In this document: one piece after another, positions 3,734 to 33,980 of the stretch | How positions within the stretch are numbered: position 1 is the first letter of the stretch | Layout of the letters: every line of letters begins with the position of its first letter | IMG/VR virus record: IMGVR_UViG_3300036859_000816 | Span: 32,001 to 96,000 of that record | DNA: 64,000 nt | Source: a virus | Direction: 5' to 3' (one strand) | Notes under the pieces: model-generated | Databases searched by the model: none | Told to the model about the DNA's origin: nothing | Seen by the model: the letters and a program-made list of their open reading frames with translations, nothing else | Program-made: the position numbers and the translations under genes

Positions 3734-4794
3734 GAGCAGACCTCAGCAAGAGCCTGTCGAACCGAATGCAAAAGTTCGCGGTTGTCATCATGTTGAAAAG
3801 TACTCAATCGCGCTCGATACATCGGCAACCGCCATAGAAACCGGCGTAAGCGATCAGCTGTCAGTTGGGCGCACCGTTCACCGAAGCCGAGGCGTGCCAA
3901 GTAGTTCGCGTTTAGGATCTGTTCGAAGTGACCGGCGAACGGTACCGCGAGCATCGGTTTACCGAGATAGATGGCCTCGGTCATGACCGTAAATCCGGCA
4001 CCAGCAATCACCGCTTGCGCACTTGCAACATCAGCAATGAAGGCTGCGTCGGAGAACGGACAGAGTGTCACATTGCGACTCTGAATCGGTTGCGTCAGAC
4101 CCTGCATACCGTAGGCGCGACATGGCACGCCGACTTGATGCATGACATCGGTCAGCTGAGCATGATCGGCCTTGGCATTGAAGTAAGTGATGACGTGGTT
4201 GCCCGGCAGAGCTGCACGCGCACGGAGAATCTCAGGGCGCAGAATCGGTAAATGCAGACTCGTTTGATCGCGACACACGGGCGCGTAGGCGAAGGTCGTC
4301 ACAAGGTAACGTTGAGCATACGGCACAAGATTGTCGACAATGGGATACATCAGTGCGGCCGCAGCTCGATCGTGCATCGTCACCTCATGCGGATGCGTGC
4401 AGCGATTCATGAAGTGAATGTTGTCGACAGCAATCAAGGGTATGCCCGTTAGATGGGCATAGCGTGCCGACCAGGGCTCGAAGTCACTGATGACGACGTC
4501 GGGTTGCACCGCTAACGAAGCATTAAGTAGCGCAAGAAAATTCAGTGGAGCTGCAACAAGCGACTTTACTGAGTTCATGAACAAGGTCGCTTCAGGACAC
4601 ACCTTGTTCTGTTTGATGACCGCGCCCAAACCCATGACGGGAAACGCAGGCCAGCGGCGCTTGAGATAACGGAGTGCGGGACCCGATGAAGCGAACGTAA
4701 CCGAGTGGCCGAGCGTCTGCAGATGCTCGGCGACAACATCCGAACGCATGGCGTGGCCCATGCCTTCACCGCATGCGCCGTACAGAATTTTCAT
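3730..4794 (-). CDS. GT-B glycosyltransferase (MJ1255/GT28-like)
   Basis: N-terminal MKILYG-GEGMGHAMRS, SDFEP, C-terminal GAGFTVMTEAIYLGKP...HFEQILNA. Confidence 0.9.
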   Translation of the reverse strand: MKILYGACGEGMGHAMRSDVVAEHLQTLGHSVTFASSGPALRYLKRRWPAFPVMGLGAVIKQNKVCPEATLFMNSVKSLVAAPLNFLALLNASLAVQPDVVISDFEPWSARYAHLTGIPLIAVDNIHFMNRCTHPHEVTMHDRAAAALMYPIVDNLVPYAQRYLVTTFAYAPVCRDQTSLHLPILRPEILRARAALPGNHVITYFNAKADHAQLTDVMHQVGVPCRAYGMQGLTQPIQSRNVTLCPFSDAAFIADVASAQAVIAGAGFTVMTEAIYLGKPMLAVPFAGHFEQILNANYLARLGFGERCAQLTADRLRRFLWRLPMYRARLSTFQHDDNRELLHSVRQALAEVCS

Positions 4795-5048
4795 TGCCTC
4801 GCCGAACGTCGGTTCACGTAGCTGTAGCCAATGATGGCGACGAGTCCGAGTAGCCCAGCCACTCCGGTTGCCACCGCTCCGCCGACAGCATAACCGAAGC
4901 GCTGACGATCAGTCGGAGCGGCGAAGTAGCCGGCAGCGGCACCGAGTGTGCCATCAACCAAAAATGATCCTGTCGATTGCGTGATGCCACGCAAGGCTAT
5001 GCCGGACAGACCATCAGGCGGAACCGTTACGAGCTGCGTTGTAACCAC
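4791..5048 (-). CDS. Small Gly-rich membrane protein
   Basis: Hydrophobic GxxxG-rich segments plus basic tail RRSARQ; ATGA coupling to the GT gene. Confidence 0.7.
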   Translation of the reverse strand: MVTTQLVTVPPDGLSGIALRGITQSTGSFLVDGTLGAAAGYFAAPTDRQRFGYAVGGAVATGVAGLLGLVAIIGYSYVNRRSARQ

Positions 5049-5323
5049 TGTTTCAAATCCTCGCCTATTCGGTAACCAAAGGCGCCGCCGATCAGAATGC
5101 CCGCGAGAGCTCCATTGCGAGCCCAGATCATGGTGCGCGGCGAATCGGTCACATAGCCCGCGGCGCCGCCGATTAGAGCGCCCGAGATCAATCCATACAC
5201 GGCTCCGATGCCACTGAGGCTCGCTGTTGGTGCTGACACAGCCGCATCGGCAAGTGGCCCAAGACCCGACCTAGCGGGAAGCGGCGGCGGAACGCGAGTG
5301 GGGACCAATGCGGACGGAACCAT
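5027..5323 (-). CDS. Small Gly-rich membrane protein with SGLG/LSGIG motifs
   Basis: Two Gly-zipper hydrophobic helices; upstream promoter-like sequence. Confidence 0.7.
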   Translation of the reverse strand: MVPSALVPTRVPPPLPARSGLGPLADAAVSAPTASLSGIGAVYGLISGALIGGAAGYVTDSPRTMIWARNGALAGILIGGAFGYRIGEDLKQWLQRSS

Positions 5324-5333
5324 CTAGGCGATC

Positions 5334-5415: not shown

Positions 5416-5961
5416 GTGGTCGCCATTGCCGCACAACCCATCGCCGATGCGCCGCCATTCGTGCGGTCACGCTTCGGAGGACCGGTTCATACGATTCAGG
5501 TCATGCAGCAGATGTGTGTGGGCCCACGTGGCGAGCGGTCGATGTTGCTGCATTCGCTCCGCAACTACATCGTGCGAGAGCTCCAGCCCAAGGATTACCT
5601 GAGCGAGATTTTAGCCGTCCGGAACTTCGCCAGTGAGCACATTCGCTACTCCAACGATCCGCTGACCGAAGAGCAAGTGCAGGATCCCGAACGCATTACC
5701 GAACAGATCATCAAGTTCGGCAAAGCAGCAGGGGACTGCGACGACCTGGCTCTATGGATTGCAGCAATCTCTCGTCAGCTCGGTCGTGAGGCGCAATTCG
5801 TGACCGTCGGCTTCGAAGCGCCCGGACGCTACAGTCACGTCTTTACGCGCGTAAAGGAACCCAAGAGCGGACAATGGATCGTCTGCGATCCAGTAGCGGG
5901 TTCGAATGAAGCGGCGATGCTGCGCCGTGTGAAGACCTTTCATGTTTGGGATATTCGCTAA
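5416..5961 (+). CDS. Transglutaminase-like (papain-fold) cysteine enzyme, candidate virion maturation protease
   Basis: Cys-His-Asp triad pattern GDCDD...YSHVF...WIVCDP. Confidence 0.85.
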   Translation: MVAIAAQPIADAPPFVRSRFGGPVHTIQVMQQMCVGPRGERSMLLHSLRNYIVRELQPKDYLSEILAVRNFASEHIRYSNDPLTEEQVQDPERITEQIIKFGKAAGDCDDLALWIAAISRQLGREAQFVTVGFEAPGRYSHVFTRVKEPKSGQWIVCDPVAGSNEAAMLRRVKTFHVWDIR

Positions 5962-6845
5962 TGGCATACATTTCGACACTCATTCCGGTTACATTCGTGC
6001 GATCGATCCAAGGCTTGGGCGTAACGCAGAGCGAATACAATGCGTGCCTGGCGGCGCAAGCTGCGTACCAAAGGGATCTTTCTGCTTGGAACACTGAGCA
6101 AGCGGCATACACCGCTGCCGTTTTGCAACGGCAGATAACCATTGCGGCGCAGACGGCGACATACAACGCAGCCTACGCGGCGTATGTGAGCGCGCACGAC
6201 CGATGGGTGAAAGCGAAGGCCACGTGGAACAGTTACTTGTCACAGCTCGCGAGTATTGCGGCCGGCTACGCAATGACGACCGCTCAGGTGACGGCAAAGT
6301 ACGGACAGATACTAAGCGGAACGCCGACATGCGTGCCGAAAGACTGGCACACCAAGCTCGCCAACGAATGTTACAACTACAGCAACCCGGTCAAGGGACT
6401 CGGCGCCTTTGATTGGCGCCAATACGAAACGCGCGAGCTCGCCTGCTTTGGTGCCGCACTGCCGACTTGTGTCGATCCGCCGCTGGCTCCGCCGCAACCG
6501 GGACCAGAGCCGATGCCGCCAGTCAAAGCGACGCCGCCTCCAGATGTGCTGCCGTTGCGACCCAAACCGACTGCGCCCTCCTCTTGCATTGCGCCTACGC
6601 CTGTAGCAGTGCCGGCGCCAGTAGTAGCAGTGCCGGCGCCAGTAGCAGTACCAGTCGTAATACCCAAGGCTCAGCCTGATGAAGGAATTAGGGTTGTCGC
6701 GCCAGCCGCGGAAGAAGCCGCTATGGCGCCAGCGGTTCCTATCGAAGCAAAAGCCGGCGGCGGTCTGCTCGTCGCGGGACTGCTGGTGCTCGCTGTAGGC
6801 GGTGGAATCTACCTCATGAGCCGCCGTCGTCCCGCAACAACGTGA
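5961..6845 (+). CDS. Putative virion protein, C-terminal TM anchor, Pro-rich stalk
   Basis: TAATG coupling at 5959-5963; IQGLGV and VKGLGA motifs; TM LLVAGLLVLAVGGGIYLM followed by RRR. Confidence 0.8.
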   Translation: MAYISTLIPVTFVRSIQGLGVTQSEYNACLAAQAAYQRDLSAWNTEQAAYTAAVLQRQITIAAQTATYNAAYAAYVSAHDRWVKAKATWNSYLSQLASIAAGYAMTTAQVTAKYGQILSGTPTCVPKDWHTKLANECYNYSNPVKGLGAFDWRQYETRELACFGAALPTCVDPPLAPPQPGPEPMPPVKATPPPDVLPLRPKPTAPSSCIAPTPVAVPAPVVAVPAPVAVPVVIPKAQPDEGIRVVAPAAEEAAMAPAVPIEAKAGGGLLVAGLLVLAVGGGIYLMSRRRPATT

Positions 6846-7568: not shown

Positions 7569-8011
7569 AGCTATCGGCTTACGAACTTGGCCCCGTAGTG
7601 GAGTGGCCGATGAGTGGAGTCCATCCCGAGCTCGTACAGGCTTCGCTCTTGCCCCTGCGTTCGACGCCGCCCGCGCGGCCGATGGACGGATGGAATGGTA
7701 TGTCCGCTTACGAGCTTTGGCCGGCGTACGGTTTCGGTGCGCGCCGTCTGCGCCGCGCTTGGCCGCTCTATGGTGTTGGCGCAGAAGAGCCACCGCCGGG
7801 TGCTCCAGCTGAGCCCGCGCGTGAGGCCGCTCCGATCGGCAAAGGATTGTTCATCGGTGCGGCGTACGGCATTGCTATCGGCATGGTCGCAAGTGAGTTT
7901 GTGATGCGTAAGCCCGATGCCACGCAACAGCTCAAGCAAAACCATCAACTCGTGATGTTTGGCGCGCTGTTCGGTGCGGCCGTCGGCGCCTTTGGAGCGG
8001 TGCAAGCGTGA
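7565..8011 (+). CDS. Putative virion membrane protein (two TM)
   Basis: GTGA coupling; internal SAYEL repeat; YGFGA/YGVGA motifs; two hydrophobic helices. Confidence 0.75.
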   Translation: MKLSAYELGPVVEWPMSGVHPELVQASLLPLRSTPPARPMDGWNGMSAYELWPAYGFGARRLRRAWPLYGVGAEEPPPGAPAEPAREAAPIGKGLFIGAAYGIAIGMVASEFVMRKPDATQQLKQNHQLVMFGALFGAAVGAFGAVQA

Positions 8012-8394
8012 AAGACCCGAACCTGCAACGCATCTTCGGTCTTGGCGATAATCCCGATGGATTGGGCCAGAACTACGCGACGAGGGAAACCAGTGGACCG
8101 GGTTCCGGACTCGAGCACGTGCCGCTATATTCGCGTGGAGCGCCGACGCTGATCAATCACGGCGCTGCCAAGGTACTTGGTCAAGACGATACCACCGAAG
8201 GATTGGTTGCGGGACTGACCGGCTTAGTCGTGCGCGCAGGAGGCGGAGCCATCGTTGGAATGGCTCTCGCTCCGAGTAAGGACAAGTGGACGGTTTATGG
8301 AATCACTGGCGCGGTTCTAGGCGCGGTGTTCGGCACGCTCGGTATGATGGGTCAAGCGACATACGTTTTGTTGACGCGAGAAGGTCGACAATGA
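8008..8394 (+). CDS. Putative virion membrane protein
   Basis: GTGA coupling; IFGLGD and DGLGQ; Gly-rich hydrophobic helices. Confidence 0.75.
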   Translation: MKDPNLQRIFGLGDNPDGLGQNYATRETSGPGSGLEHVPLYSRGAPTLINHGAAKVLGQDDTTEGLVAGLTGLVVRAGGGAIVGMALAPSKDKWTVYGITGAVLGAVFGTLGMMGQATYVLLTREGRQ

Positions 8395-9416
8395 CGATGA
8401 ACCTACGCCGCAATTTGATGGGACCGTATCAGCGCGGTGTGCCCAGTCAATACGTCGTCCACTATCATCCGTGGCCAACGCGCTTCCATGGTCCGCTGTA
8501 TCAGCGTCCCGTTTTCAATTTCCCATGGATGAGCTCGCCGCAGAACGTCTTCAAGCCTGGTGATTTCTATCCCGGAGAACTCACCGAGGAGCAAATGTCA
8601 GTGCAAGGACTCGGAGCAGACAGTCGTTATCAAACTGGCCAAGAGGCGATGGCTTACAACGTAGGTCGCGGCATCTTCAAGCCGGGCGGTTACGGCGGCG
8701 GCATCTTTGATGGTAATCTATCCGGCGACAAAGTCGCTCGACCGCTCGGCACGCCGCAGCGTCGTCGACGGCGTCGTCGCGGCATGAGTGGCTTGGGTGC
8801 TGCAACGGGACCAGTGCCGTCGACATGCTGGGACAGCCAAGCGTTCAAAGATTGCCAAGCGCGCGTCTTTGCAAAAGCGCAAGGTGACTGTCCCAAGACG
8901 GGTTACCCGAATGCGGCATATCCGAGCTACGACGATTGCGTAAAGGATCTGGCTGCAACGTATGTAGGTCCATCAGCAGAATCGCTCACCTGCGTTTCGC
9001 AGTATTGCGGTGGTGCCGCAGCAAAAACTGCAACGGGCGCATATCCGTGGGGCACATACAGCGCGGAGACGTTACGAATTCAAAAGGAAACGAACACTGC
9101 GCTTGCGCTCAAGGGTTTCTGTCCCATTGTAGCTGACGGTAAACTTGGACCCGCCACATGCGGCGCACGCAAAGCGCTGAGCGACCTTGGTCTGAGTTTT
9201 CCTGTTCCTTCAACCTGCCAAAAATTCACGGCACCGACTAAACCGCCATGTCCAGGTGGAGCGCCGGGACCAGTATTCGAGCCGGGGAAAGGCATCACTA
9301 CGGCATCGATGCTGCCCGGTGCCGGTCCTGACTGGACGATGATCGCGGCATTCGGTGTCGGTGCCGTCGCAGTGCTCGGCATCGGATACTTTCTACTGAC
9401 TCGAAAGGAGCAATAA
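8391..9416 (+). CDS. Putative virion protein with peptidoglycan-binding-like domain and C-terminal TM
   Basis: ATGA coupling at 8391; IQKETN...VADGKLGPAT (PG_binding_1-like); R-run before MSGLGA; TM plus RK. Confidence 0.8.
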   Translation: MTMNLRRNLMGPYQRGVPSQYVVHYHPWPTRFHGPLYQRPVFNFPWMSSPQNVFKPGDFYPGELTEEQMSVQGLGADSRYQTGQEAMAYNVGRGIFKPGGYGGGIFDGNLSGDKVARPLGTPQRRRRRRRGMSGLGAATGPVPSTCWDSQAFKDCQARVFAKAQGDCPKTGYPNAAYPSYDDCVKDLAATYVGPSAESLTCVSQYCGGAAAKTATGAYPWGTYSAETLRIQKETNTALALKGFCPIVADGKLGPATCGARKALSDLGLSFPVPSTCQKFTAPTKPPCPGGAPGPVFEPGKGITTASMLPGAGPDWTMIAAFGVGAVAVLGIGYFLLTRKEQ

Positions 9417-9417
9417 G

Positions 9418-10602
9418 ATGCCCAAAGGAGGCGGCGGCGGTGGTGGCCGTGGTGGAGGGGGAGGCGCGCGTGGAGGCGGTGGCATGCGCATGGGAGGCGG
9501 TTTTCGAGGCGGCCGCGGTGGCATGCGCATGGGCGGCGGCGGCTTTCGTCACCGTTTTCCACGACGGTTTTTCGGTGGCGGCGGAGCCTTCTTTGCGCCC
9601 GGCGGCGGTTGGTGGGGCGACGGTTATCCTTGGTACTGGAACGACTGGGATTACCCGCTCTATCTAATTGAAGACGAAGAAGAACGCGAAGAAGCGCGCA
9701 AGTGGCGTGAATTTCTCGCGATGCAAGCGGCACAGCAAGCGGCTACCCAAGCCGCTCAACTAGCCGTGCAACAAGTCGTCAAGGCGAAGTCGACGAAAGG
9801 TCTGGGTCTAGGTCTCGGCATCTTTCGGCCGAACGATAAGACAGCGCGTCCACTCGGACAGATGATGCCACATTCATGGAATGCACTCGGCGTCATCTTT
9901 GGAAACACGACGGCAGATCCCAAGGTTACGGAAACGCAGAAGTGGCTGAACGGTTACCTGAGCAAGCTTGGCTTCACGACGCTGACGGTCGATGGCAAAC
10001 TCGGAGCTAAGACGTGCGGCGCATGCGCCTGGTCGTTCGGTAATACACCCGACGTCGACATTTCGACCGCGCCACAGGCGTTCTTCGAAGTGTGGAACGT
10101 TTGCGCAAGCTCGTCGCAAACGGCACCGACTCCGCTTACGCAAGCTGCCAAAACTAGCGCGTACACGACCGGCGTCACCGCTATGCAAGCGAAGGTCGTG
10201 GACCCGAAATTGGTCGCGGACACTCAGACTGCATTGAATGTCGGCTTACTTGCGAACGGCATGTGCGCTCTCAGCGTGGATGGCAAAGCAGGGCCGGCTA
10301 CATGCGGAGCACAAGTTTGGTTGATAGCGCATGCCGGTGGTGATGGGCTCACACAAGCGCAACGTGATGCCATTTATCCCGTGTGCTCGGCTGGGTCTAA
10401 AGTAGCGCCCTCGGCGTGTCCGCCCGTGACGGCGGTTGCGCCCGTGGACATTACTAAGAAAGAACCGTCACCCGAAGCGGCGCTCGTTGCCCCAGCGAAA
10501 CCGGCATTTACCGGCGCGACCATGCTTGCCGGTCTAGGCATTGCTGCAGCGCTCGGTGCGCTCTGGTACGTTTACAGTCAGAAGAAGGCTGCCGGCGCAT
10601 GA
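9418..10602 (+). CDS. Putative virion protein: RGG/Gly-rich N-terminus, two PG-binding-like domains, C-terminal TM
   Basis: RBS AAGGAG; TQKWLN...VDGKLGAKT and TQTALN...VDGKAGPAT; TM plus KK. Confidence 0.85.
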   Translation: MPKGGGGGGGRGGGGGARGGGGMRMGGGFRGGRGGMRMGGGGFRHRFPRRFFGGGGAFFAPGGGWWGDGYPWYWNDWDYPLYLIEDEEEREEARKWREFLAMQAAQQAATQAAQLAVQQVVKAKSTKGLGLGLGIFRPNDKTARPLGQMMPHSWNALGVIFGNTTADPKVTETQKWLNGYLSKLGFTTLTVDGKLGAKTCGACAWSFGNTPDVDISTAPQAFFEVWNVCASSSQTAPTPLTQAAKTSAYTTGVTAMQAKVVDPKLVADTQTALNVGLLANGMCALSVDGKAGPATCGAQVWLIAHAGGDGLTQAQRDAIYPVCSAGSKVAPSACPPVTAVAPVDITKKEPSPEAALVAPAKPAFTGATMLAGLGIAAALGALWYVYSQKKAAGA

Positions 10603-11147
10603 GACGAGCTTACATTTCCATCGAGGATTTTCGTGCTCCGTTCGATCCCATTCCGTTTCAAGGATTGGGTCAGGACCCGTACGGCGATCCGCGTTGGCAT
10701 GTTCCGGCGCCGCCGCGTCGTTGGCCACGCGGCCGTAGCTATTGGGAGACCGCTCTCTTTCGTGCGCCGTATCGCAAGGGCTACTATCAGGACAACAGCC
10801 TGTTCGGTTTAGGCGCAACTGCGGCGACCGTCAGCGTCCAGGAAGTCCAGAAGGCGGTCGGTGCAGCTCAAACGGGGCAATGGGACGCCGCGACCGTGTC
10901 CGCAGTGCGCAAAAAGCAGAAGCAACTCGGATTGCCCGAAACCGGCGCTCCCGATTTCCCGCTGCTCGCTGCACTCGGCCTGGCTCAAGCTGAAGCGCCG
11001 ACGGTTACACCGGCGGACAGCTTTTTTCGCGACGCTCGTACAGCTCTGAACCAAGTGCCGCAGTGGGCGTACTTGGTGGGCGGCGGATTGCTCATGTTTT
11101 TGGCTTGGAACGGTTACCAGAGCTGGCGGCGGCAACCGGGTACGTAA
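10599..11147 (+). CDS. Putative virion protein with PG-binding-like domain and C-terminal TM
   Basis: VQEVQKAVG...TGQWDAATVSAVRKKQKQLGLPETG; FQGLGQ and LFGLGA. Confidence 0.8.
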   Translation: MRRAYISIEDFRAPFDPIPFQGLGQDPYGDPRWHVPAPPRRWPRGRSYWETALFRAPYRKGYYQDNSLFGLGATAATVSVQEVQKAVGAAQTGQWDAATVSAVRKKQKQLGLPETGAPDFPLLAALGLAQAEAPTVTPADSFFRDARTALNQVPQWAYLVGGGLLMFLAWNGYQSWRRQPGT

Positions 11148-11150: not shown

Positions 11151-12086
11151 ATGACGATCGAGGAAACGTTCAACGATCTGACGGCGCGTGCCGAAACGAT
11201 TACCAAGGGCATTCCTTGGGCTCGGCTCGAAGCGGAAGGTAAAGTCGGAAACTACGTTGTAGACTACATTGCGCCCGCGTTCTCAGCAGCCACCGATGTC
11301 ATGAATACGCTGTACTACGATATCGTTCTGTACAACAAAGCGCAGACGGAAAGCGCGGTCAAACAAATTGCTGAGAACATGTACGACGGTATCAAGAATC
11401 AACTTTCCGACATGCTCCACGGCAATATTAGTGGATTTCTCAAAAATGGTGTTGCGTTGCAGGTGCGCAACTTGCGGGATCTAGTTTCCTTGGCATACGG
11501 CACAGCGTTCTTTGGAGCACGTCTGCACTCCAGTGCAACGGACTATGCGGCGATTGCGAGCTTGCCATACAATGATGTCAAGGCGCACGCGGACAAGGTT
11601 GTGCGAATTTTAGAGGGCATAAAAATCCTAGATGACCTCGGCGTGCTGACGTTCATGAAATGGGACAGCTCGTTCATGGAGGATCTGCGCATCGAACAAG
11701 GCTATCCGCCCAATACACCAAACCCACCAAACCCGATGAAGGGATTGGGAGCGGTGCCGGTTCTGGGAATTGTGATAGCGATCATTGCCGGCATTGTCAT
11801 TATCGCCGGCATTTGGATTTGGGCTCGATCCGCCAGTGAATACAATCGGCAGGCACTCGCGACTCTCGAAAAGCTATGCTCTGATCCAAGTCAATCCGAA
11901 AAGATCAAAACTCAGTGCGTCAAGGCGTTAAGCGAACCACAAGCGGGATTTGCGGCCGTGGTGCAGAAACTCGGTACGACCGCACTGACCTACGTATTCA
12001 TTGGTGCTCTGATTGTCGGGGCTATCTACTTGGCGCCTCGCATAGTGCGTTCATTCCGTGAAGCTCAAGCCGAAGCGAGGGCGTAG
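11151..12086 (+). CDS. Putative virion membrane protein (two TM after MKGLGA)
   Basis: 311 aa; TM VLGIVIAIIAGIVIIAGIWIW and YVFIGALIVGAIYL. Confidence 0.8.
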   Translation: MTIEETFNDLTARAETITKGIPWARLEAEGKVGNYVVDYIAPAFSAATDVMNTLYYDIVLYNKAQTESAVKQIAENMYDGIKNQLSDMLHGNISGFLKNGVALQVRNLRDLVSLAYGTAFFGARLHSSATDYAAIASLPYNDVKAHADKVVRILEGIKILDDLGVLTFMKWDSSFMEDLRIEQGYPPNTPNPPNPMKGLGAVPVLGIVIAIIAGIVIIAGIWIWARSASEYNRQALATLEKLCSDPSQSEKIKTQCVKALSEPQAGFAAVVQKLGTTALTYVFIGALIVGAIYLAPRIVRSFREAQAEARA

Positions 12087-12996: not shown

Positions 12997-14031
12997 ATGC
13001 GACGACGCTATCTGCGCCGCAATCCAGCCTTCGAAATGACACCTGCTCGCGGATTGCCGGAACAAACGCGACCAGACCTCTCCGGGCTCGTCTTTATGGG
13101 TCTCGTCATCAACCCGAAGACCAAGCGGCCGGTCTTGGCAACAACAGATGGAGACTACGTAGGTATCCGCAGCATTGAGCAAGCTAATGTTCTTGAACAA
13201 CTTGGTCGTGGCTACCATTCGAGCAGTTACGAAGCAGCAGAAAAAGCGACAGGATATCCGCGCGTGCATACGCCCGAAGGCGTAGGTAAGAAGGGTCAAG
13301 GCTACGGCACGACGCTCTACACGGCACTGTGTTTAGGAGCAGAGTTAGCATGGGAGGAAAAGATCGAGATTTCGATGACTGGCAGCGGTCGCGGCATTTC
13401 GTCGGATTCGGAAGATCGTTCGGCAGCAGCGAGCCGATGGTGGGAAGCTGCACATGATCGCGGTCTGACGGATCAAGAGGTCGTCGAAGGTGAATCAGAG
13501 AGGGAAGAATACGTTAAACTCGATGTGAGCCCGAGCGAGTTAGAGGGATGCTTGACCGGTGTCGAAGGAGAAATCACCTATGTCAACGAAGTCAATGTCG
13601 ACATTGAAAAGCCCGCCGAGGATCGTACATTCGATTACTATACGTACAAGAGCGCGACCGAGCATAAGTTGATACCGCTATCGTTTGCTCTGGAAATTCC
13701 GCGGATGCCAAGTGGCGCCGAACTCAGGTATGTGTGGAAGGAAATCTTCGATGATCCTGACCGGTTAATCAGTTACGACTGGACCGCATTACTAGCTCTC
13801 GACGTTCGCGACCTGGATATCGATATCGTTAACTTGTTGTCGCTCGCATATATTGCTGCGGGTGGACGCGACAAAGATGTCGATGACCTCTGGTATCGGT
13901 GGAAACATGGCCTCGATCCGGACGTCGTCTCGCCGCAGGAGCGACTGTTTCGAGCCAATGCGGCGGGACTCGTGAGCGTGGCGGACGCGCGCGATGAGGC
14001 TGGCTGGACAGCGCTATCCGGTCTTCCTTGA
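12997..14031 (+). CDS. Hypothetical protein with GNAT-like acetyl-CoA-binding motif
   Basis: 344 aa; KKGQGYGTTLY resembles GNAT motif A, followed by S..RSAAASRWW; N-terminal MRRRYLRRNP. Confidence 0.6.
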   Translation: MRRRYLRRNPAFEMTPARGLPEQTRPDLSGLVFMGLVINPKTKRPVLATTDGDYVGIRSIEQANVLEQLGRGYHSSSYEAAEKATGYPRVHTPEGVGKKGQGYGTTLYTALCLGAELAWEEKIEISMTGSGRGISSDSEDRSAAASRWWEAAHDRGLTDQEVVEGESEREEYVKLDVSPSELEGCLTGVEGEITYVNEVNVDIEKPAEDRTFDYYTYKSATEHKLIPLSFALEIPRMPSGAELRYVWKEIFDDPDRLISYDWTALLALDVRDLDIDIVNLLSLAYIAAGGRDKDVDDLWYRWKHGLDPDVVSPQERLFRANAAGLVSVADARDEAGWTALSGLP

Positions 14032-23551: not shown

Positions 23552-24192
23552 TGCTGCCGATCATAGCGGTATCGGGATTAGGTGCGACGCAGGCGGATCA
23601 ATCTTCTGTGCGCTGCCGAACGCGAGCGCGCCCATGGGGTGCAACCCAATCATCCGAGCCTAGCTGTCAACCGCGGCCGCAACCCTGGTCGTGGATGCTC
23701 CCACCAGCGCCACCCGCTATCTCTACACCACCGAAGGTAGCCGTTGTCCGTGCTCCGGTTGTAGTCGCCAAGCCGCCGCCGGTCGTAAAAGCAAAGCCTG
23801 CACCCGTTGTAACAGTCAAGCCTGCTCCGACCGTAGTAAAATGCGAACCGGGAATGAAAGACTGCGCATGCAGAGCAGATAGCACGTGCGACCGCGGTTC
23901 GCGTTGTGTGGCGCACACGTGTGTGCCATGCAAACTGGGTACGCATAAATGCCAATGCGATGACAATGGAAAATGTCCGGGGCGCACAAGCAAAACCGGG
24001 AAGCTCTATTGCAAGTCGGGCATCTGCAAAAAGAGAGTGCACCACGGCATCTGGCCATTTTCTTCAACGAGCTACGAAGGACTCGGTGAAGAGCCGGCCG
24101 CACCGCTTTGGGCTTGGGCTGGTATCATCGGTTTGACGGGATTCATCTTTTGGTCGACGCTCCGTCCGCCGCGCCTACCGATAGGACGCTGA
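23551..24192 (+). CDS. Pro-rich and Cys-rich putative virion protein with C-terminal TM
   Basis: TAATG coupling; VSGLGA and YEGLGE flank two Cys-rich repeats. Confidence 0.8.
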   Translation: MLPIIAVSGLGATQADQSSVRCRTRARPWGATQSSEPSCQPRPQPWSWMLPPAPPAISTPPKVAVVRAPVVVAKPPPVVKAKPAPVVTVKPAPTVVKCEPGMKDCACRADSTCDRGSRCVAHTCVPCKLGTHKCQCDDNGKCPGRTSKTGKLYCKSGICKKRVHHGIWPFSSTSYEGLGEEPAAPLWAWAGIIGLTGFIFWSTLRPPRLPIGR

Positions 24193-24448: not shown

Positions 24449-25948
24449 ATGGCGTACAACCACATGTCGGCATATCAGGAAGGCATTCTCGGCGCTTTAA
24501 TGCGTCAGCCCGGCTCCGTGCACGAAGGCAGCCTGGGCGTGCTCATGCGTCAGCCCGGGTCTGTACACGAGGGCAGTCTGGGCATTCTGATGCGTCAGCC
24601 GGGCTCCGTGCACGAAGGCAGCCTTGGCGTGCTCATGCGCCAGCCTGGGTCTGTACACGAGGGTAGTTTGGGCGCACTCATGCGTCAGCCGGGATCCGTT
24701 CACGAAGGCAGCTTAGGCGTGACGCCGCGCCGTCGCATTTGGACAGCCGCATCACCGCTCTTGCAAGGGATCGGTCTGGCGCCTGCACCAATGACCGCTC
24801 CGGGAACGTCCGTCATGATGGCTCCGCGCGTTGCGGGTATGCCCGCGTACGCGCGCGCGGCGGCGGAACGAGCTCGCGCCCGCGCGGAATGTCAAGCGCG
24901 CTGCTATGCGCTGCCGACAGCAAAGCGCCCGGGCTGTCTGTCGGGTTGTTCCCGATCCTATCCCGTGAGCGGCCTCGGAGCTCTGATGGCGCCGCCTGGT
25001 GCGGCCGTCATGATGCGGCCACCAACGCGGGCAATGCCCGCATCGGCGCGTGCTGCCATGGAGCGCGCCCGGGATCGCGCGGAATGCCGCTCGCGCTGCT
25101 ATGCGCTGCCGTCGGCGTCGCGTACGCCGTGTCTATCGACGTGTTTAGCAACGTACCCCTTGACCGGTCTCGGAGCGGATGGAGATGCAGCCGCAGCGGC
25201 CGCACGCGAAGCCGCCGAACACGCAACGACCCGTGTGTCGTCTGAACAGGCGGCTTCAGCTGCAACGATCAAAGCTTCGCAGGCAGCGGCTCAGGCTGCT
25301 GCGGCGACGCATCCGATCGAACGAGCGGCGGCTGAGAGTGCAGCGTCCGCGGCAGCAGCCGCTGCTGCACAACATACCCAACAAGCGCAAGCGGCTCGGG
25401 CTGCTGAGATCAGTGCCGTCGCTAGAATGCGGATGATTGCGGCATCGCCACATCGTCCGCACTATCCGCCCTGGGCCGCAGCGGCAGCCATTGTGCCGCC
25501 TGGTCAGCGCGTACGCAGGCGCGCTACGCCGTGGTTTGGACAGTACGGTCGGGCAGCGAAAACCATTGGCAAGGGATTCTCGAAGGTTCAGCACTACGCG
25601 GAAACGCCCGAGCGATACATACAAAAGGTGCCCGTTGTGGGCACTGCGGCGAAAGCGGCGAAGACTGTTATCGAGGCTCCCATCAAAGCCATTACGTCAC
25701 TTTTCGGTCTGGGCGCGGCGCCGCAAACGGTTGCCGCCAAAATGGCTTCCGCGACGGCACGCGCGGTTTGTCTCAAGAACTGTGAAAAGCGTCCGGGAGC
25801 CGCATTCGCTCCATGCGTGAGTAGCTGCTTGAATCAGTATCCCTTGCATGGTCTGGGCGCCGAAACACCGGCCGGGGATACGAGCTGGCTCTGGATCGTG
25901 GGAGGCGTGGCACTGCTCGGCGCAGTCGTAGTAATGGCGTCGCGGTGA
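24449..25948 (+). CDS. Modular precursor-like virion protein (5x 15-aa repeat, 3x twin-CX3C modules, C-terminal TM)
   Basis: RBS GGAG; xLMRQPGSVHEGSLG x5; three CxxxC-x10-CxxxC-xxxYPxxGLG modules. Confidence 0.85.
   Translation: MAYNHMSAYQEGILGALMRQPGSVHEGSLGVLMRQPGSVHEGSLGILMRQPGSVHEGSLGVLMRQPGSVHEGSLGALMRQPGSVHEGSLGVTPRRRIWTAASPLLQGIGLAPAPMTAPGTSVMMAPRVAGMPAYARAAAERARARAECQARCYALPTAKRPGCLSGCSRSYPVSGLGALMAPPGAAVMMRPPTRAMPASARAAMERARDRAECRSRCYALPSASRTPCLSTCLATYPLTGLGADGDAAAAAAREAAEHATTRVSSEQAASAATIKASQAAAQAAAATHPIERAAAESAASAAAAAAAQHTQQAQAARAAEISAVARMRMIAASPHRPHYPPWAAAAAIVPPGQRVRRRATPWFGQYGRAAKTIGKGFSKVQHYAETPERYIQKVPVVGTAAKAAKTVIEAPIKAITSLFGLGAAPQTVAAKMASATARAVCLKNCEKRPGAAFAPCVSSCLNQYPLHGLGAETPAGDTSWLWIVGGVALLGAVVVMASR
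24494..24718 (+). repeat. 45-nt coding tandem repeat x5
   Basis: In-frame ATG every 45 nt from 24500; differences are mostly synonymous. Confidence 0.9.
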
Positions 25949-26544
25949 ATCCAACCGGCATCGACGGATTTTTGCATCGGCTCGGCGAAGTCCTCGGAAC
26001 ACTGCAAGCCGCGCCGGGTCCCGTCCATCGGCGCATCTGGATCGAGCTCGGTCCCTGGCTTCGAACACTGACGGTTGAGGCCGCGCCGAAGTGGCTCGGG
26101 CGGCTCGCCGCCGAGTTGCCATGTCATGTTGCAGCGATCGAACATGATGGCGCGCGCAAGTGTCCTCGGCATGCCGTCGCGCTCTGCATGCTCTGCGGTG
26201 GCGCAACGTGCCTCGAGCACGCGTTCATCGATATCCACGGCGAATCGATCTGTTACGTATGTGCGACGAAAGCGTTACACGGTCATGTGCACCACGCGCC
26301 GCCGCCAAAGGTACCGCGAGACGTGCAGTCACCGCGCGATGTCGCCTGGGCTTGCCGGCAGCTCAAAGTAGACAGCGACGTGACCGCGGCCGAGTTACAT
26401 ACTGCGCACCGCAAGTTAAGCGCACACTGGCATCCGGACCGCTATCGTACTGAGCAACAGAAGGCAAACGCAGAGCGACGCTTCAAGGACGTTCAACGAG
26501 CTTTCGATATCTTGCAGAAGCATCTGCAACGTAGTGCTGCATGA
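25945..26544 (+). CDS. Zn-finger plus DnaJ (J-domain) protein
   Basis: Cys/His cluster CxxC..CxxH..CxxC; C-terminal HRKLSAHWHPD...AERRFKDVQRAFDIL. Confidence 0.85.
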   Translation: MNPTGIDGFLHRLGEVLGTLQAAPGPVHRRIWIELGPWLRTLTVEAAPKWLGRLAAELPCHVAAIEHDGARKCPRHAVALCMLCGGATCLEHAFIDIHGESICYVCATKALHGHVHHAPPPKVPRDVQSPRDVAWACRQLKVDSDVTAAELHTAHRKLSAHWHPDRYRTEQQKANAERRFKDVQRAFDILQKHLQRSAA

Positions 26545-27763: not shown

Positions 27764-28117
27764 ATGAGCTACGCGGGCCTCGGCGCTCATCCCATCCACC
27801 GAAGCCGAGTGGTCACAAGTTCGACCAGCTACGCACGCTTGCATCCGAGTTACTGGCAGGCATTGCAGCCCGACGGACCGTGGGAAGCGGGAGCGCCCGG
27901 CTGGTACACTGCTCCGTATGTCGGCTGGGGCCAGAATCCCGATCGGCACTTGCCTCCCATTCTCGCCAATGATGGCTGCTGCAGTGGATGCGGCGGCTGC
28001 GGCAGTACAGGACAGACCGAAGACGTCTTCCTGAAGCCGCCCATTTGGCCGATCTTTGTCCTACTCGGCGTTGCGGGCCTGGGCATGTTGGCTGTCTACA
28101 AGCTCGCGCAAGATTGA
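27764..28117 (+). CDS. Small putative virion protein with C-terminal TM
   Basis: MSYAGLGA N-terminus; GCCSGCGGCG; TM IWPIFVLLGVAGLGMLAV. Confidence 0.75.
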   Translation: MSYAGLGAHPIHRSRVVTSSTSYARLHPSYWQALQPDGPWEAGAPGWYTAPYVGWGQNPDRHLPPILANDGCCSGCGGCGSTGQTEDVFLKPPIWPIFVLLGVAGLGMLAVYKLAQD

Positions 28118-29588: not shown

Positions 29589-29959
29589 GCGAAGCGTTCA
29601 TCGAATTGTGCGAACTGATTCGCCAGGCTGGTCTCGAGCTGCGACTGTACGGGCGTCCCGTCACCAAACAGCAGGTGCTCGAGTACGCACAACAGCATTC
29701 AATGATGAGGATAGCGACGATGAGCAACTCGAATACGGACACAAATTGGAAATTTTCGGATGAGCTCGACGGATTGAAATTGGGCACGGCCGAAGAAGAG
29801 CGGCACCGGGCGAAGCTCTGGATGGACACGGCTGCGCAGCATGGGCGTAACGAAGAGTACTGGCGCAATCGCTGTCGCAAAGCCGAAGAAGTCATCAACG
29901 AATTCGTCAAACAGGCCGGCAAAGCGGGCTATACGATCAGCGCTAAAAGCGATGACTAG
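29585..29959 (+). CDS. Hypothetical protein
   Basis: ATGA coupling at 29585; overlaps the start of the next gene. Confidence 0.55.
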   Translation: MSEAFIELCELIRQAGLELRLYGRPVTKQQVLEYAQQHSMMRIATMSNSNTDTNWKFSDELDGLKLGTAEEERHRAKLWMDTAAQHGRNEEYWRNRCRKAEEVINEFVKQAGKAGYTISAKSDD

Positions 29960-31292
29960 CGAGCGTATGGATGAAACGGCCGCGCGAGCACCCGTCGAAG
30001 GGCAGCTCGAACGCGAACGACCGTACTTTGCACCGGGTCAAACAGCGGAGCACCTATTCAGTGTGCTCTATCAAGGCGAATACGAGACGCTCGGGGACGG
30101 TACCGCTATTGCCGTCCGCCGGCATGCGACGGCCTTGGCAGCAAGTGGTATTCCCGTACAGCTGCGGAGCTTTTCGAACATCGTCGTCAATCGCTACGGT
30201 GTGCGCGAGCCGGCGCACCTCGGCATTCCGGCACCCGTCGAAGCTGAAGTCGGTGCGCTGCGCAAGACATCGGTTCAAGCGCTCATTCCTGTCATCAAGC
30301 ATGCGGTCATCGCCAGCGCGGAACACGCGCGCAACATCCTAATTCCTCATGGCGCCATCGGTACCGATACGATGGCAACCGTCGAGCTGCGGCGCTCGAT
30401 TTGCCAAAATACGATCTTGTACACGGTCTGGGAGCGCAGCCGCATCGATGAAACGTTGGCGCGTGAACTTGACCGCGCGGCGCAGCTCTGGGTGCCGTGT
30501 GTACAGAACGCGCAAATGTTGGAGTCCAGCGGCATCGCTAAACACAAGATTCACGTCGTGCCGCACCCGTATCGGCCTGATGATGATCTCACCAAACTGC
30601 TCGATCGCAAACCGACGGACTGGCGTCTGTTCTATTCGATCGGCCGCTGGGAACCGCGCAAGGCTTACGCGGAGCTAATTACAGCGTTTCTGCGTGCGTT
30701 TACGCCGAGCGACAAGGTCATGTTGACGATCAAGTACTCGGGCAATGGCAATTGGCAAGGCTACCCGACGCCAGCACAGGCTTTATACATGGCTCTCGAT
30801 TCGACCGTCAGGAAACATTGGACGGAAGAGCAAGCACGCCAACGTATCCGGTTCATCGACAAGCACCTCAGTGCTTCAGGAATCATTGAACTGCATTTCC
30901 GCAATAACATTTACGTCTCGTGTTCGCATGGCGAAGCGTGGAACTTCGGCGCATTTGACGCGATACAAGCCGGCAACTCTCTCGTGTACGTGCCATGGGG
31001 CGGCGTAGTGGATTACGCTTCACCGAACGACACCAGAGTGCCGTTACGCGGCATGCAGCCAGTACATGCCAGTTATGGATGGGCCGAAAGCGAATGGGCA
31101 GGATTTGAAATCGACGACTTGGCGCTCGCTCTGCGCTCCACTCCAGTGCGCAGCGCGTACGGGCGGCCGCTGCATTTTAGTCACTTCAGCGCGCCGGTAG
31201 TTGGCCGACAAATGCGCGATCTTGTGCTCCAGCTCGCCGACGAACGAGCGCCAGCTGCAGCTGCGTACTATCGAGGAAAGGTCGATGGCTAA
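29952..31292 (+). CDS. GT4-like glycosyltransferase
   Basis: YTVWE, LWVPC, VVPHP, SIGRWEPRK, SHGEAWNFGAFDA. Confidence 0.85.
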   Translation: MTSERMDETAARAPVEGQLERERPYFAPGQTAEHLFSVLYQGEYETLGDGTAIAVRRHATALAASGIPVQLRSFSNIVVNRYGVREPAHLGIPAPVEAEVGALRKTSVQALIPVIKHAVIASAEHARNILIPHGAIGTDTMATVELRRSICQNTILYTVWERSRIDETLARELDRAAQLWVPCVQNAQMLESSGIAKHKIHVVPHPYRPDDDLTKLLDRKPTDWRLFYSIGRWEPRKAYAELITAFLRAFTPSDKVMLTIKYSGNGNWQGYPTPAQALYMALDSTVRKHWTEEQARQRIRFIDKHLSASGIIELHFRNNIYVSCSHGEAWNFGAFDAIQAGNSLVYVPWGGVVDYASPNDTRVPLRGMQPVHASYGWAESEWAGFEIDDLALALRSTPVRSAYGRPLHFSHFSAPVVGRQMRDLVLQLADERAPAAAAYYRGKVDG

Positions 31293-32133: not shown

Positions 32134-32419
32134 AAAGATACTAGTGACGTGCGATTTTTGCGGAGAATTGGCCAGATGTGATGCTTCCGAAGATCCAACA
32201 GTACAGCTAAATTTAGTCGTCAGCGCTAAGAGCAAACAGCTCGCTATTCATAGGCGTCCTCCGATGCCTGTTGTCGGTGACGCAACTGGCATCTTCCCGT
32301 CTGACGTTTGCGTGACGTGTCTAAATAAAGCGTTACGTGCGCTCGGGTTGGAGCTGTGTGACGGCAACGAACGCGGATTTCCGCCTAGTCTATATCTGCG
32401 ACGCAGCGATAGCCGATGA
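32126..32419 (+). CDS. Small Zn-finger protein
   Basis: CDFC...CVTC. Confidence 0.6.
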   Translation: MAKKILVTCDFCGELARCDASEDPTVQLNLVVSAKSKQLAIHRRPPMPVVGDATGIFPSDVCVTCLNKALRALGLELCDGNERGFPPSLYLRRSDSR

Positions 32420-33486
32420 ATGTTCGTCTCTACGGACGCATCATGGGTCATGGCAGCCATGCGCAGGTGACGCGCGGCTTTCGTGAAACTCTCGAGGTAG
32501 CCGGCTTGCTGAGCGGAGTCGTCGCGCTCGATATACTGGGTTTGGACGAACAGTTGATGGGTCAACTTCGATCTAGCGGTGATCCCGCAGTAGAGCACGG
32601 CGTCTTGACAGGTGCGCTCGAATTCATGGATCAGTTGACGCGAGCGAAACATGCGCGTCGCTGGGTCATGGTCGCTCCGAACAGCAACTGCTTACCTCGT
32701 CCGATTGAACAGATGCTCAACGACATTGCGACCGATGTCTTGGTGCCCTCTGATTGGGCGGCGGACATGCTCAAGGAGTTAACGGATAAACCGATCCACG
32801 TCGTGCCGCACGGTGTGCATGAAGGTTTCTCACGCAGCGCCGCTCAGCGTGAACGGCTAGAGAACGATTACAACGCACAACAGTTTCGCGTTCTGCACTT
32901 TTCGACGAGCGAACGCCAGCGCAAGGGCACGTTTGAGTTACTGTGCGCGTGGCGCGCGCTGATGAAGTGCGGTCGGTTACCTAAGCTCGCTGAGCTATTT
33001 CTTGTGCTGGATTACTCCGCACAATTGCGACTTGCGGAACGACTTGTGGACGAAGACATGGACGTGCCCGGCCTGAAAGTCGTAACTCGTCTGGACGCGG
33101 CACCCCAAGCGATGGCGGACGTGTTGCGGCAAGCGCACGTAGTCTGCCAACCGTCACGGGCGGAAGCCTTTGGGATCATCCCCCTTGAAGCACTCGCATG
33201 CGGCACGCCGATCGTCGCAACGGCCTGCACCGGTCACAAGCAGTACTTGTCGCATTTAGGCGTACCGGGCTTCGTTGTCGTCCCGCATGCCGAGCTCGGA
33301 CCTATCGATGATGGGCCGGCTGCCGTTGCGCCAACGGTCGATCCTGAGGCCATTGAAGCGGCTCTGGCGGTCGCGTACGACAACTGGCGCGATCTCAGTG
33401 GGCTCGCATTCGACGCCGCACCGAGGGTCGCGGTAGACTGGTCATGGCGGCGTCAACTTGCGCCGTGGCTGGAGCAACTGAGATGA
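32416..33486 (+). CDS. GT4 glycosyltransferase
   Basis: VVPHGV, RKG, PSRAEAFGIIPLEALACGTP (E-x7-E motif). Confidence 0.9.
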   Translation: MNVRLYGRIMGHGSHAQVTRGFRETLEVAGLLSGVVALDILGLDEQLMGQLRSSGDPAVEHGVLTGALEFMDQLTRAKHARRWVMVAPNSNCLPRPIEQMLNDIATDVLVPSDWAADMLKELTDKPIHVVPHGVHEGFSRSAAQRERLENDYNAQQFRVLHFSTSERQRKGTFELLCAWRALMKCGRLPKLAELFLVLDYSAQLRLAERLVDEDMDVPGLKVVTRLDAAPQAMADVLRQAHVVCQPSRAEAFGIIPLEALACGTPIVATACTGHKQYLSHLGVPGFVVVPHAELGPIDDGPAAVAPTVDPEAIEAALAVAYDNWRDLSGLAFDAAPRVAVDWSWRRQLAPWLEQLR

Positions 33487-33980
33487 CTAGTCTAGGTCAA
33501 CCCGCACGCAGCTTCTGGCGCTTGCCACCCGGTACACCCGAATGGATGCGCCCACCGGATTGGATGGCGTTGGGGTCGCCCGGCAAGATCGTGGGCATGA
33601 TGCAGAACCCGCGCACGGGAAAGTGGACGATGGTTGAAGCGATGGCCGGGCTCGGCAATCCCGGAAAAATCGTCGGCTTCAATCCCGACACGGGTGAGGT
33701 CTACTGGGCGACTGCCGGCTTCGGTGCGACGACCGCTCCGGCCTATGCTCAGGAAGCGGCAAAACGTGCGGCTGAAGCCGCGGCGGCCGCAGCGAAAGCT
33801 CAGGCGGCAACCCAGGCCCTGAAACAACAGCAAGCCGCACTCGCGCCGCAGTTGGCACCGACGACGACGGCGAAAGCGCCCGCCGATGCGACGATACCCA
33901 TCCTAGCGTTTGGTGCCGTCGCCATTGTCGGCGGCATCCTACTGTTTCGACGCCGACGTCCAGAAAGATCCACCACATGA
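33483..33980 (+). CDS. Putative virion protein with C-terminal TM
   Basis: ATGA coupling; LGSPGKIVG/LGNPGKIVG repeat; TM plus RRRR. Confidence 0.75.
   Translation: MTSLGQPARSFWRLPPGTPEWMRPPDWMALGSPGKIVGMMQNPRTGKWTMVEAMAGLGNPGKIVGFNPDTGEVYWATAGFGATTAPAYAQEAAKRAAEAAAAAAKAQAATQALKQQQAALAPQLAPTTTAKAPADATIPILAFGAVAIVGGILLFRRRRPERSTT

Follow-up and report, generated by a model that had tools for sequence, protein, structure and literature searches.

Enrichment of a Gly-Leu-Gly motif in the operon of an IMG/VR virus and a transglutaminase-fold enzyme that may read it

The + strand operon of the IMG/VR virus record IMGVR_UViG_3300036859_000816 is enriched in the tripeptide Gly-Leu-Gly (GLG) and encodes, at 5416-5961, a transglutaminase-fold enzyme with a Cys-His-Asp triad. 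The record has 131,132 bases and is rated 85% complete; the window, that is the whole stretch analysed here and the basis of our coordinates, comprises its bases 32001-96000 (64,000 nucleotides). The motif is very probably a functional signal at the protein level, tied to this operon and to its anchored membrane proteins. We also hypothesize, with far less confidence, that the GLG sites are recognition or cleavage sites read by the enzyme, a reading that sequence, models and analogy make possible rather than probable.

Enrichment and conservation of the GLG motif

From 5416 to about 35800, almost every gene lies on the + strand, and the majority have no Pfam or PHROG match. Genes were predicted with a codon-usage model trained on the long open reading frames (ORFs) of the record, with few manual additions, and the 35 + strand ORFs in 5416-33980 (9,091 amino acids, aa) served as the operon set for counts. 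Using shuffles of each protein that preserve its composition, we found 32 GLG in the operon against 5.61 ± 2.38 expected, a number reached by none of 1000 shuffles. The sites are carried by 17 of the 35 proteins, compared with 5.06 ± 2.0 expected carriers (0 of 2000 shuffles). A preliminary description of this DNA had reported about 30 GLG in about 17 structural-arm proteins and had proposed an enrichment test controlled for Gly and Leu content; the count was accurate and the excess withstood the control. Sites followed by Ala, Asp, Glu or Gln number 22 (1.49 expected), and GLGA is found 15 times (0.75 expected). By contrast, the remainder of the 131-kb genome (143 ORFs, 30,670 aa) holds 18 GLG versus 14.55 ± 3.87 expected, which 62 of 300 shuffles reach, and is not enriched. 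Thus, the contrast described earlier holds, even if the count of about four GLG outside this putative structural arm was too low.

Twelve control tripeptides (GAG, GSG, GTG, GPG, GRG, GEG, GDG, GKG, GQG, LGL, LGG and GGL) showed no enrichment in the operon. GGG was enriched (24 vs 7.8), because of one Gly run in 9418-10602. Variants with another middle residue, which the preliminary description had counted with the motif, are not significantly enriched in this window (G-[IVMF]-G, 17 vs 12.0; 102 of 1000 shuffles reach this), whereas they are in the related G002 and G003 (see below).

Since the 32 operon sites are encoded by 25 distinct 9-mers, G-L-G is a signal at the protein level and not at the DNA level. 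Three of the 32 fall in membrane-helix-like hydrophobic stretches. Site context was compiled for 33 window sites, namely the 32 operon GLG and one in the - strand gene 5027-5323: position -2 is V, M, L or I in 19, position -1 is S or A in 15, and position +1 is A in 15, giving a local consensus of [P/S]-[V/M/L/I]-[S/A]-G-L-G-A. In its broader form, the motif reads hydrophobic-x-G-[L/M/I/V/F]-G, with Ala, Asp, Glu or Gln as a frequent next residue. A glycosylation sequon was considered, as the genome holds many glycosyltransferases, and set aside, because Ser stands ahead of the motif in only 8 of the 33 sites in the window and in 33 of the 281 that were pooled.

The enzyme, the operon proteins that carry or lack GLG and the carrier on the opposite strand are as follows; families are referred to below by the start of their window gene.

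5416-5961, + strand: transglutaminase-fold Cys-His-Asp enzyme of 181 aa (Transglut_core); no GLG of its own
5946-6845, + strand: protein anchored by a C-terminal helix; GLG at aa 23 and 151; its true start is likely an internal Met-Ala-Tyr
8008-8394, + strand: small membrane protein; GLG at aa 11 and 18
8391-9416, + strand: C-terminally anchored protein, peptidoglycan-binding-like module present; GLG at aa 73 and 134; Met at 8391 used, ORF listed from 8286
9418-10602, + strand: Gly/Arg-rich, C-terminally anchored protein; GLGLGLG at aa 128-134, plus a GLG within the helix (aa 372)
10599-11147, + strand: PG_binding_1 protein (Pfam, 2.5e-6); GLG at aa 22 and 70, both conserved in orthologues
11151-12086, + strand: membrane protein; GLG at aa 198, directly ahead of a helix
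12089-12415, + strand: C-terminally anchored protein of 108 aa, predicted partner of the enzyme; GLG at aa 22, GIG at aa 37
14028-15716, + strand: protein of 562 aa; GLG at aa 42, not conserved in orthologues
16464-18365, + strand: protamine-like, Arg-rich protein; membrane helices, acidic tail; GLG at aa 383, 463, 487 and 579, plus GFG, GMG and GVG
18493-19248, + strand: conserved protein of 251 aa, possible capsid component; no GLG; matches in 19 of 21 loci (median identity 58%)
20839-21807, + strand: capsid candidate of 322 aa, jelly-roll-like; GFG at aa 261 in a loop
21807-22616, + strand: protein with GLG at aa 195 (gene call and orthologue comparison)
22754-23551, + strand: C-terminally anchored protein; GLG at aa 18
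23551-24192, + strand: Cys-rich protein; GLG at aa 9 and at aa 177, the latter ahead of a C-terminal helix
24194-24436, + strand: membrane protein of 80 aa; GLG at aa 35, eight residues ahead of the helix
24449-25948, + strand: modular, C-terminally anchored protein; GLG at aa 175, 240, 420 and 468
27764-28117, + strand: small membrane protein starting MSYAGLGA; GLG at aa 5, a second GLG inside the helix
28690-29310, + strand: soluble Cys-rich protein; GLG at aa 187 in a C-x-x-GC element
33444-33980, + strand: C-terminally anchored protein; GLG at aa 69, GFG at aa 92
5027-5323, - strand: small membrane protein; GLG at aa 20

No cultured relative was found by DNA or protein among 50,697 phage records. 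IMG/VR provided 26 related loci through the enzyme family and 24 through the 322-aa capsid-like protein, in records of 19.5-182 kb that are often fragmentary and in some cases have direct terminal repeats; several are rated 96-100% complete, and those at least 96% complete span 130-179 kb. For the enzyme-based count, 22 loci remained after removal of four duplicates (L022, L030, L031 and L032): + strand proteins downstream of the enzyme gene hold 158 GLG vs 42.5 expected, compared with 36 vs 30.7 upstream. Around the capsid-like gene, 23 loci (of which L046 and L067 give 2 and 0 ORFs and add almost nothing) hold 292 GLG vs 85.2 and 624 G-[LMIVF]-G vs 265.6. The operon of G002 contains 19 GLG vs 6.8 (0 of 1000 shuffles reach this) and 29 G-[IVMF]-G vs 14.1, and that of G003 contains 15 GLG vs 5.9 (1 of 1000) and 22 G-[IVMF]-G vs 12.4. 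The middle residue differs by lineage, being mostly Leu in this genome and in many cases Met or Val in G003.

When all tripeptides were ranked by over-representation in 196 pooled downstream proteins, GLG came second after PPP (154 vs 42.3, z 17), and it lies outside the top 15 in 222 upstream proteins. Among the pooled sites, position -2 is L, V, I, M or F in 134 of 281. GIF (30 vs 5.2) and GVF (42 vs 10.2) are also over-represented, in Gly-rich disordered stretches of the pooled operon proteins; so are TCG, CGA and DGK, which come from a repeated GKLGPATCGA peptidoglycan-binding-like module found in the pooled proteins and in window gene 8391-9416.

Most GLG proteins diverge fast, and several have no BLAST match at 1e-5 in other loci. 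The proposal that relatives would keep the motif while its flanks diverge was borne out in part. Orthologue alignments of the 8391, 10599 and 12089 families show the motif kept in position and the flanks drifting; of the 63 database homologues found for the 8391 protein, 61 retain one or more G-[LMIVF]-G ahead of their last 30 residues, usually at two or three fixed places with differing neighbours. In the acidic tail of the 16464 protein, four to five motif sites are kept in 16-18 of 18 orthologues, and the GLG ahead of the helix is present in 12 of 15 sequences of the 24194 family. Orthologues of the 21807 protein keep G-x-G with a variable middle residue, and those of the 22754 protein have GLG, SLG or HLG at the aa-18 site, many of them SLG. 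The expectation failed for 14028, 27764 (five orthologues found) and 28690; the GLG of the last is probably a chance occurrence, judging from its sequence setting and from the orthologues. The GFG in the loop of 20839-21807 was likewise rejected as a conserved site, as it is kept by close relatives only.

That the enrichment is a functionless artefact of composition, internal repeats or paralogue ancestry is hardly credible. Repeated modules in the 24449 and 16464 proteins do supply 8 of the 32 sites, and three window sites are not conserved. However, the shuffles control composition protein by protein, counting each protein once still gives 17 vs 5.1, the motif occurs in unrelated families with varying codons, and the enrichment recurs in the 22 and 23 related loci. 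We therefore reject both a composition and a DNA-repeat artefact.

The motif is not evenly placed. Of the 33 window sites, nine are among the first 25 residues of their protein, five or six come no more than about 20 residues ahead of a C-terminal helix, and several close repeated modules in the 24449 and 16464 proteins; the 24449 protein has three Cys-rich modules, each ending YP-x-x-GLG. Thus, the earlier statement that sites stand just after short N-terminal leaders, between repeated modules and just before membrane anchors was partly right. In operon proteins of all loci, the motif lies within the first 32 residues in 144 of 574, with a density per 1000 positions of ~9 in the first 30 residues compared with ~3.5 at residues 100-400; over the first 60 residues, it is ~2.5-fold denser than at residues 100-400. 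A C-terminal hydrophobic helix terminates 13 of the 17 GLG proteins versus 5 of the 18 GLG-free operon proteins (Fisher p 0.0067), and in the GLG proteins a short, mostly basic tail follows it. Since the N-terminal domain, the motif and the anchor are all that short forms of the 8391 family contain, the motif falls at module borders.

This placement bears on the idea that the motif belongs to a C-terminal sorting signal like those read by sortases, exosortases or rhombosortases, the papain-like enzyme being a transpeptidase that joins the protein to another molecule. Such a layout fits the 24449 protein (GLG, 8 residues, helix, SR) and the 24194, 23551 and 11151 proteins, and the density of G-[LMIVF]-G peaks at 12.5 per 1000 at 10-20 residues from the C-terminus. 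However, part of this peak comes from motifs inside helices, and only the five or six sites just ahead of a C-terminal helix fit; nine are N-terminal and the others internal, so that the layout is not general, and we consider a sorting signal very unlikely.

A second N-terminal signature was observed: 38 of 571 operon proteins of related loci start Met-Ser-Tyr and 53 start x-[S/A/T]-Tyr, compared with 1 of 222 upstream proteins. Such starts are spread over loci L007-L066 and, in the window, are found in 27764-28117, 24449-25948 and at the internal start in 5946-6845. Of the 64 proteins with a start of this type in their first 9 residues, 27 have G-[LMIVF]-G within 32 residues.

The transglutaminase-fold enzyme and its predicted partner

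The product of 5416-5961 matches the Pfam family Transglut_core (PF01841; E 8.8e-8, 32.8 bits vs a cut-off of 23). It belongs to a family of ~180-aa proteins with 424 database homologues, for most of the 120 listed of which a PF01841 assignment is precomputed. C108, H141 and D158 are invariant, in that order, in 55 diverse sequences and also in a 20-sequence alignment. The AF2 model is of high quality (predicted local distance difference test, pLDDT, 94.9; predicted template modelling score, pTM, 0.90), and Foldseek matched it with a probability of 1.00 to 3kd4 and 3isr (transglutaminase-like putative proteases), to PNGase 2f4m and to LapG 4fgq. Further fold neighbours are Rad4, TgpA, the pseudomurein endoisopeptidases PeiW and PeiP, and arylamine N-acetyltransferases; the matches in a library of viral structures are the psiM2 endoisopeptidase and three proteins without a name. 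A search of solved structures by sequence profile gave a single weak row, PNGase (E 0.23), in which the triad aligns with the PNGase triad region. From the family match and the model, membership of the transglutaminase-like superfamily is settled as far as the fold is concerned.

The preliminary description had placed this gene at the head of the operon as a Cys-His-Asp transglutaminase-like gene. The assignment stood, and it is here the first + strand gene after the strand switch; in G002, three + strand genes precede it. The enzyme has matches in 21 loci with a median identity of 54%, versus 24-52% for nine other operon families with matches. As for the expectation that related genomes co-encode it, the gene was found in all 13 records that were searched for both the enzyme and the capsid-like gene. 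No signal peptide or membrane helix is visible in its sequence. Crosslinking of the transglutaminase type, which had been offered as an alternative to cleavage, was discarded: the motif has no fixed Gln or Lys in it or beside it for Gln-Lys chemistry.

Some homologues carry the motif themselves. By hand count, 24 of the 120 listed have a leader of at least 8 residues ahead of the conserved block; in 14 of the 24 the leader ends G-[LIMVF]-G, and one more ends GYG. Several homologues (P0020, P0044, P0057, P0062, P0093 and others) start with a twin-arginine-like RR-x-F-L-Q-G-[LMI]-G. A twin-arginine export signal, considered for these leaders and for G003 proteins, was rejected, as no long hydrophobic stretch follows.

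We modelled the enzyme (alignment of 55 rows) together with residues 1-72 of the small anchored 12089 protein (7 rows). The complex scored 0.87, compared with 0.21 for the best of three controls; in calibration, 58 of 80 solved complexes attained this mark, as did 2 of 110 mismatched pairs, counts that hold only roughly here given the custom alignments. At least 83% of contacts are shared between runs, and the pLDDT of the partner is at least 65. The confident interface involves residues 51-74, 129-131, 145-158 and 162-175 of the enzyme and residues 1-11, 24-47 and 61-66 of the 12089 protein, with the tightest contacts between residues 38-42 of the latter (I-G-V-A-S, part of its G-I-G) and the enzyme strand 153-156 that leads to Asp158. 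The confident contacts do not include Gly22 and Leu23 of the 12089 protein. The model lends support to an association of the 12089 protein with the enzyme, and this protein may be a stable subunit or tether, recalling the way in which LapD holds LapG.

Proposed cleavage and other readings of the motif

In the mechanism that we propose, the co-conserved cytoplasmic enzyme would act as a site-specific endopeptidase that removes short N-terminal leaders, separates modules and frees domains from their anchors during assembly or maturation. The small 12089 protein would wrap around it and may tether it to the membrane near its substrates, and the cut might fall after the middle residue or after the second Gly. 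What favours cleavage by the enzyme is that leaders are found at N-termini, that sites lie at module borders, that the triad is invariant and that the enzyme is unusually well conserved. It is also favoured by the strict co-occurrence of enzyme and motif, by the motif on some enzyme leaders and by the fact that no other maturation protease family of the cysteine or serine type was found. Two further grounds are the precedent of LapG (PMC3032545) and a likeness to the adenovirus consensus (PMC3386624).

The preliminary description had called the putative system adenovirus-like. The adenovirus protease consensus is (M/I/L)XGX-G or (M/I/L)XGG-X (PMC3386624). In both cases, one small cysteine enzyme is found with a short Gly motif across many proteins of one module, including an Arg-rich protein of the DNA-binding type; the hydrophobic position -2 (134 of 281 pooled sites) fits the M/I/L at P4, if the putative cut falls after the middle residue. 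The sites thus resemble (M/I/L)XGX-G in pattern, and the rest of the epithet has to be given up: there is no sequence relation to adenain, and the logic, on an unrelated fold, would be convergent at most. The peptidase families C5 (PF00770) and C48 (PF02902) gave no match at E <= 1 in a six-frame search of the 131-kb record (85% complete). The enzyme has its catalytic residues in the order Cys, His, Asp on a transglutaminase/papain-like fold, whereas the order in clan CE is His, Glu/Asp, Cys. Moreover, the carriers of the motif, where cleavage is putative, are here mostly membrane-anchored, unlike those of the adenovirus system.

LapG, for its part, is a transglutaminase-like protease with a C-H-D triad. 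It cuts its substrate LapA at a single defined place near the N-terminus, between Ala108 and Ala109, and the membrane protein LapD holds it (PMC3032545). The window enzyme resembles LapG and the BTLCP group in its size (~180 aa), its C-H-D triad and its fold, and the hold of LapD on LapG, as described there, parallels the predicted 12089 tether. The structure 4u65, cited for LapG-LapD, is among the Foldseek matches of the enzyme, and Legionella LapG (4fgq) can be likened to it by structure, as a weak match (E 2.9e-3, TM 0.48, 14% identity). The difference is that LapG is periplasmic and acts on an Ala-Ala site in one adhesin, whereas the window enzyme has no export signal and would act on putative G-L-G sites in many proteins.

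The prohead proteases of tailed phages offer a further comparison. With T4 gp21 and the phiKZ-type enzymes, many internal virion proteins bear short N-terminal leaders that end in a consensus site, which the leaders described here resemble. These proteases have other folds and another site consensus, and no HK97-type protease was found here (S78, no match at E <= 1 in the six-frame search).

Several points weigh against cleavage by the enzyme. The fold cannot separate a protease from an isopeptidase, amidase or transferase, because PNGase, PeiW/PeiP and arylamine N-acetyltransferases are also among its neighbours, and all that is said here of catalysis is what we infer. The window sites in 14028, 27764 and 28690 lack conservation. 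In the complex model, Cys108 and His141 are absent from the confident contacts, which include D158 and the preceding strand, and the interface spans nearly all conserved residues of the partner, so that it looks more like that of a stable subunit than of a passing substrate. The leaders of the enzyme homologues depend on the start choices of gene callers, many of these homologues are close relatives of one another and several are near-duplicates, and the window's own enzyme has no leader. Enzyme and motif always co-occur, which leaves no natural genome with just one of the two in which the link could be probed. In the tail of the 16464 protein, the residues after the motif (GEYF) are conserved as strongly as the motif itself, a pattern to be expected in binding epitopes rather than in cleavage sites. 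The neighbouring genes with peptidoglycan-binding modules would also suit an enzyme that cuts the cell wall during entry. Finally, the terms virion and bacterial are ones that we infer, the capsid-like match being weak (Z 8.0).

Some of these points would agree with a motif that is never cut, an uncut docking or assembly signal: a sticky peptide in disordered stretches by which the anchored membrane proteins and the Arg-rich core protein would hold on to a shared partner, be it the capsid shell, a scaffold, or the enzyme fold in the role of an adaptor or a chaperone. In the 16464 tail, the G-[LMV]-G-E-Y-F units are repeated and conserved past the tripeptide, GIF and GVF are enriched in the same proteins as GLG, and the large, stable-looking interface uses the G-I-G strand (residues 38-42) without the catalytic Cys among its confident contacts. 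Yet an adaptor would need no invariant Cys-His-Asp triad across 55 diverse sequences, removable leaders typically show such a bias to the first 30 residues, with leaders as short as MSYAGLGA, and lone GLG sites in variable linkers suit a protease site at least equally. We regard docking as somewhat unlikely.

Alternatively, the motif might be processed by a host protease or by a viral M23-like peptidase, and the enzyme might be a virion cell-wall endopeptidase or isopeptidase for entry or lysis, tethered by the 12089 protein. Here, the relevant fold neighbours are PeiW and PeiP, which are phage pseudomurein endoisopeptidases, and the psiM2 enzyme, and adjoining proteins bear peptidoglycan-binding modules. 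M23 enzymes include glycyl-glycine endopeptidases, and an M23-like gene is present (27.7 bits, just under the Pfam cut-off of 28.7). Together with an SLT transglycosylase, it is the only peptidase or lytic enzyme among the Pfam matches listed (scans of 183 proteins; the best 25 of 30 families in one inventory, with four genes straddling locus borders left out). Against this, the M23-like gene is remote from the operon, the enzyme shows neither a signal peptide nor a membrane helix, and some of its homologues have the motif in their own leader. The enzyme is also more conserved than the other operon proteins with matches, whereas lysins usually evolve fast. Processing by another protease is thus unlikely in our view. 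The M23-like gene lies on the - strand at 94184-94780 in window numbering, that is outside the window (genome 126184-126780; match at 94442-94630); its product has an N-terminal membrane helix and three GLG.

On balance, the part of the preliminary description that concerned the motif proved sound: it is real, conserved, found together with an enzyme whose triad is intact and close to a known cleavage consensus, no rival protease family was found, and the model supports binding. Its interpretation, that the enzyme cuts at GLG, is weakened by the modelled interface without Cys108 and His141, and stays a possibility that we would not call probable, though it is the likeliest of the readings considered. 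Virus maturation proteases with a short consensus and site-specific proteases of the transglutaminase fold are already known; of their combination, the motif and the lineage, the literature searched holds no description. To our knowledge, maturation cleavage at Gly-based sites has been reported for eukaryotic viruses only. If the proposed cleavage code were true, it would be the first such system in a prokaryote virus of the jelly-roll/membrane type, on a different protease fold; it would bear on how maturation proteases were acquired in that virus realm and would add a new specificity for transglutaminase-fold proteases. Even without cleavage, the motif marks the proteins of one functional set and predicts their putative mature ends, and it offers a compact, testable way into a virus lineage not yet described, in which almost every other gene is unannotated.

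Type of virus and neighbouring genes

The AF2 model of the 322-aa protein (20839-21807) consists of a helical hairpin and a beta-sandwich (pLDDT 74.5). Foldseek gave nothing at E <= 0.001 for it, the weak rows being mostly jelly-roll capsid proteins. With VIA, a search independent of Foldseek, its beta domain weakly matched a PBCV-1 capsid chain (Z 8.0; root mean square deviation 4.4 A over 127 aligned residues), followed by EhV-201 (Z 7.0) and HHIV-2 (Z 6.6); best Z values of 7-8 are typical of models without a clear match. The 251-aa protein (18493-19248) gave a weak Atlas lead to the PRD1 P2/P3 families (score 0.75-0.77). No terminase, portal, HK97 capsid or tail family is among the family matches listed, and one collagen-repeat protein matches tail-fibre families. 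For a packaging ATPase, a Walker A scan of the gene calls gave two weak matches, with no family listed and no family-specific search run. A tailless, membrane-containing particle is plausible. As in PRD1, PM2 and SH1/HHIV-2, many small membrane proteins are encoded beside capsid-like genes, and the weak fold matches of 20839-21807 (HHIV-2, PBCV-1) and the weak Atlas lead of 18493-19248 are further likenesses to jelly-roll viruses. The size differs: known membrane-containing members of the PRD1 type have ~10-45 kb, whereas the records here that hold genes of the family have 24.7-182 kb, many being fragments, and those at least 96% complete 130-179 kb. We know of no maturation protease in bacterial members of the PRD1-type viruses, and no description of one was found in the literature searched; nor did that literature yield a description of this lineage, of its motif or of a transglutaminase-like maturation protease.

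Host hints come from two metagenome bins only, one of Pirellulales and one of Saccharibacteria. The full picture would be a widespread, uncultivated lineage of large viruses, of 130-180 kb where rated near-complete, possibly on Planctomycetota, with a jelly-roll-like capsid, dozens of tail-anchored proteins and a transglutaminase-fold protease that a small anchored subunit tethers to the membrane and that cuts hydrophobic-x-G-L-G in most membrane proteins and in one protamine-like core protein. It would be the counterpart in bacterial viruses, by convergence, of the Gly-based cleavage of adenovirus, asfarvirus and poxvirus. As a whole, this picture is rather doubtful.

The few annotated genes of the operon region include the following, identified by Pfam/PHROG matches.

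19305-20690: HNH endonuclease
25945-26544: DnaJ-domain protein
29841-31292 and 32416-33486: two glycosyltransferases

The HNH endonuclease has repeated modules and sits between the two conserved capsid-candidate genes (18493 and 20839). Since these adjoin in G002, with no HNH gene between them, it resembles a mobile insertion. The 16464-18365 protein, conserved in 17 related loci at ~29% identity, has more than 200 aa of Arg runs and SP-Arg repeats, followed by membrane helices and then by an acidic, Gly-rich G-x-G-E-Y-F tail.

At the ends of the record (genome bases 350-4365 and 127089-131132), there is a direct repeat of ~4 kb with 82% identity, which is a diverged duplication and not a clean terminal repeat. 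The genome flanks and window positions 36000-62000 carry cargo that is unusual for a virus, namely H-NOX (HNOB), response regulator, GAF and LuxR-type domains, a sulfatase, ParB, a Cas12f-like TNB domain, ThyX and at least 6 glycosyltransferase genes. Moreover, 229-2715 encodes an 828-aa protein with no Pfam or PHROG match and no usable Atlas match, which has a counterpart of 860 aa at the same place in G003.

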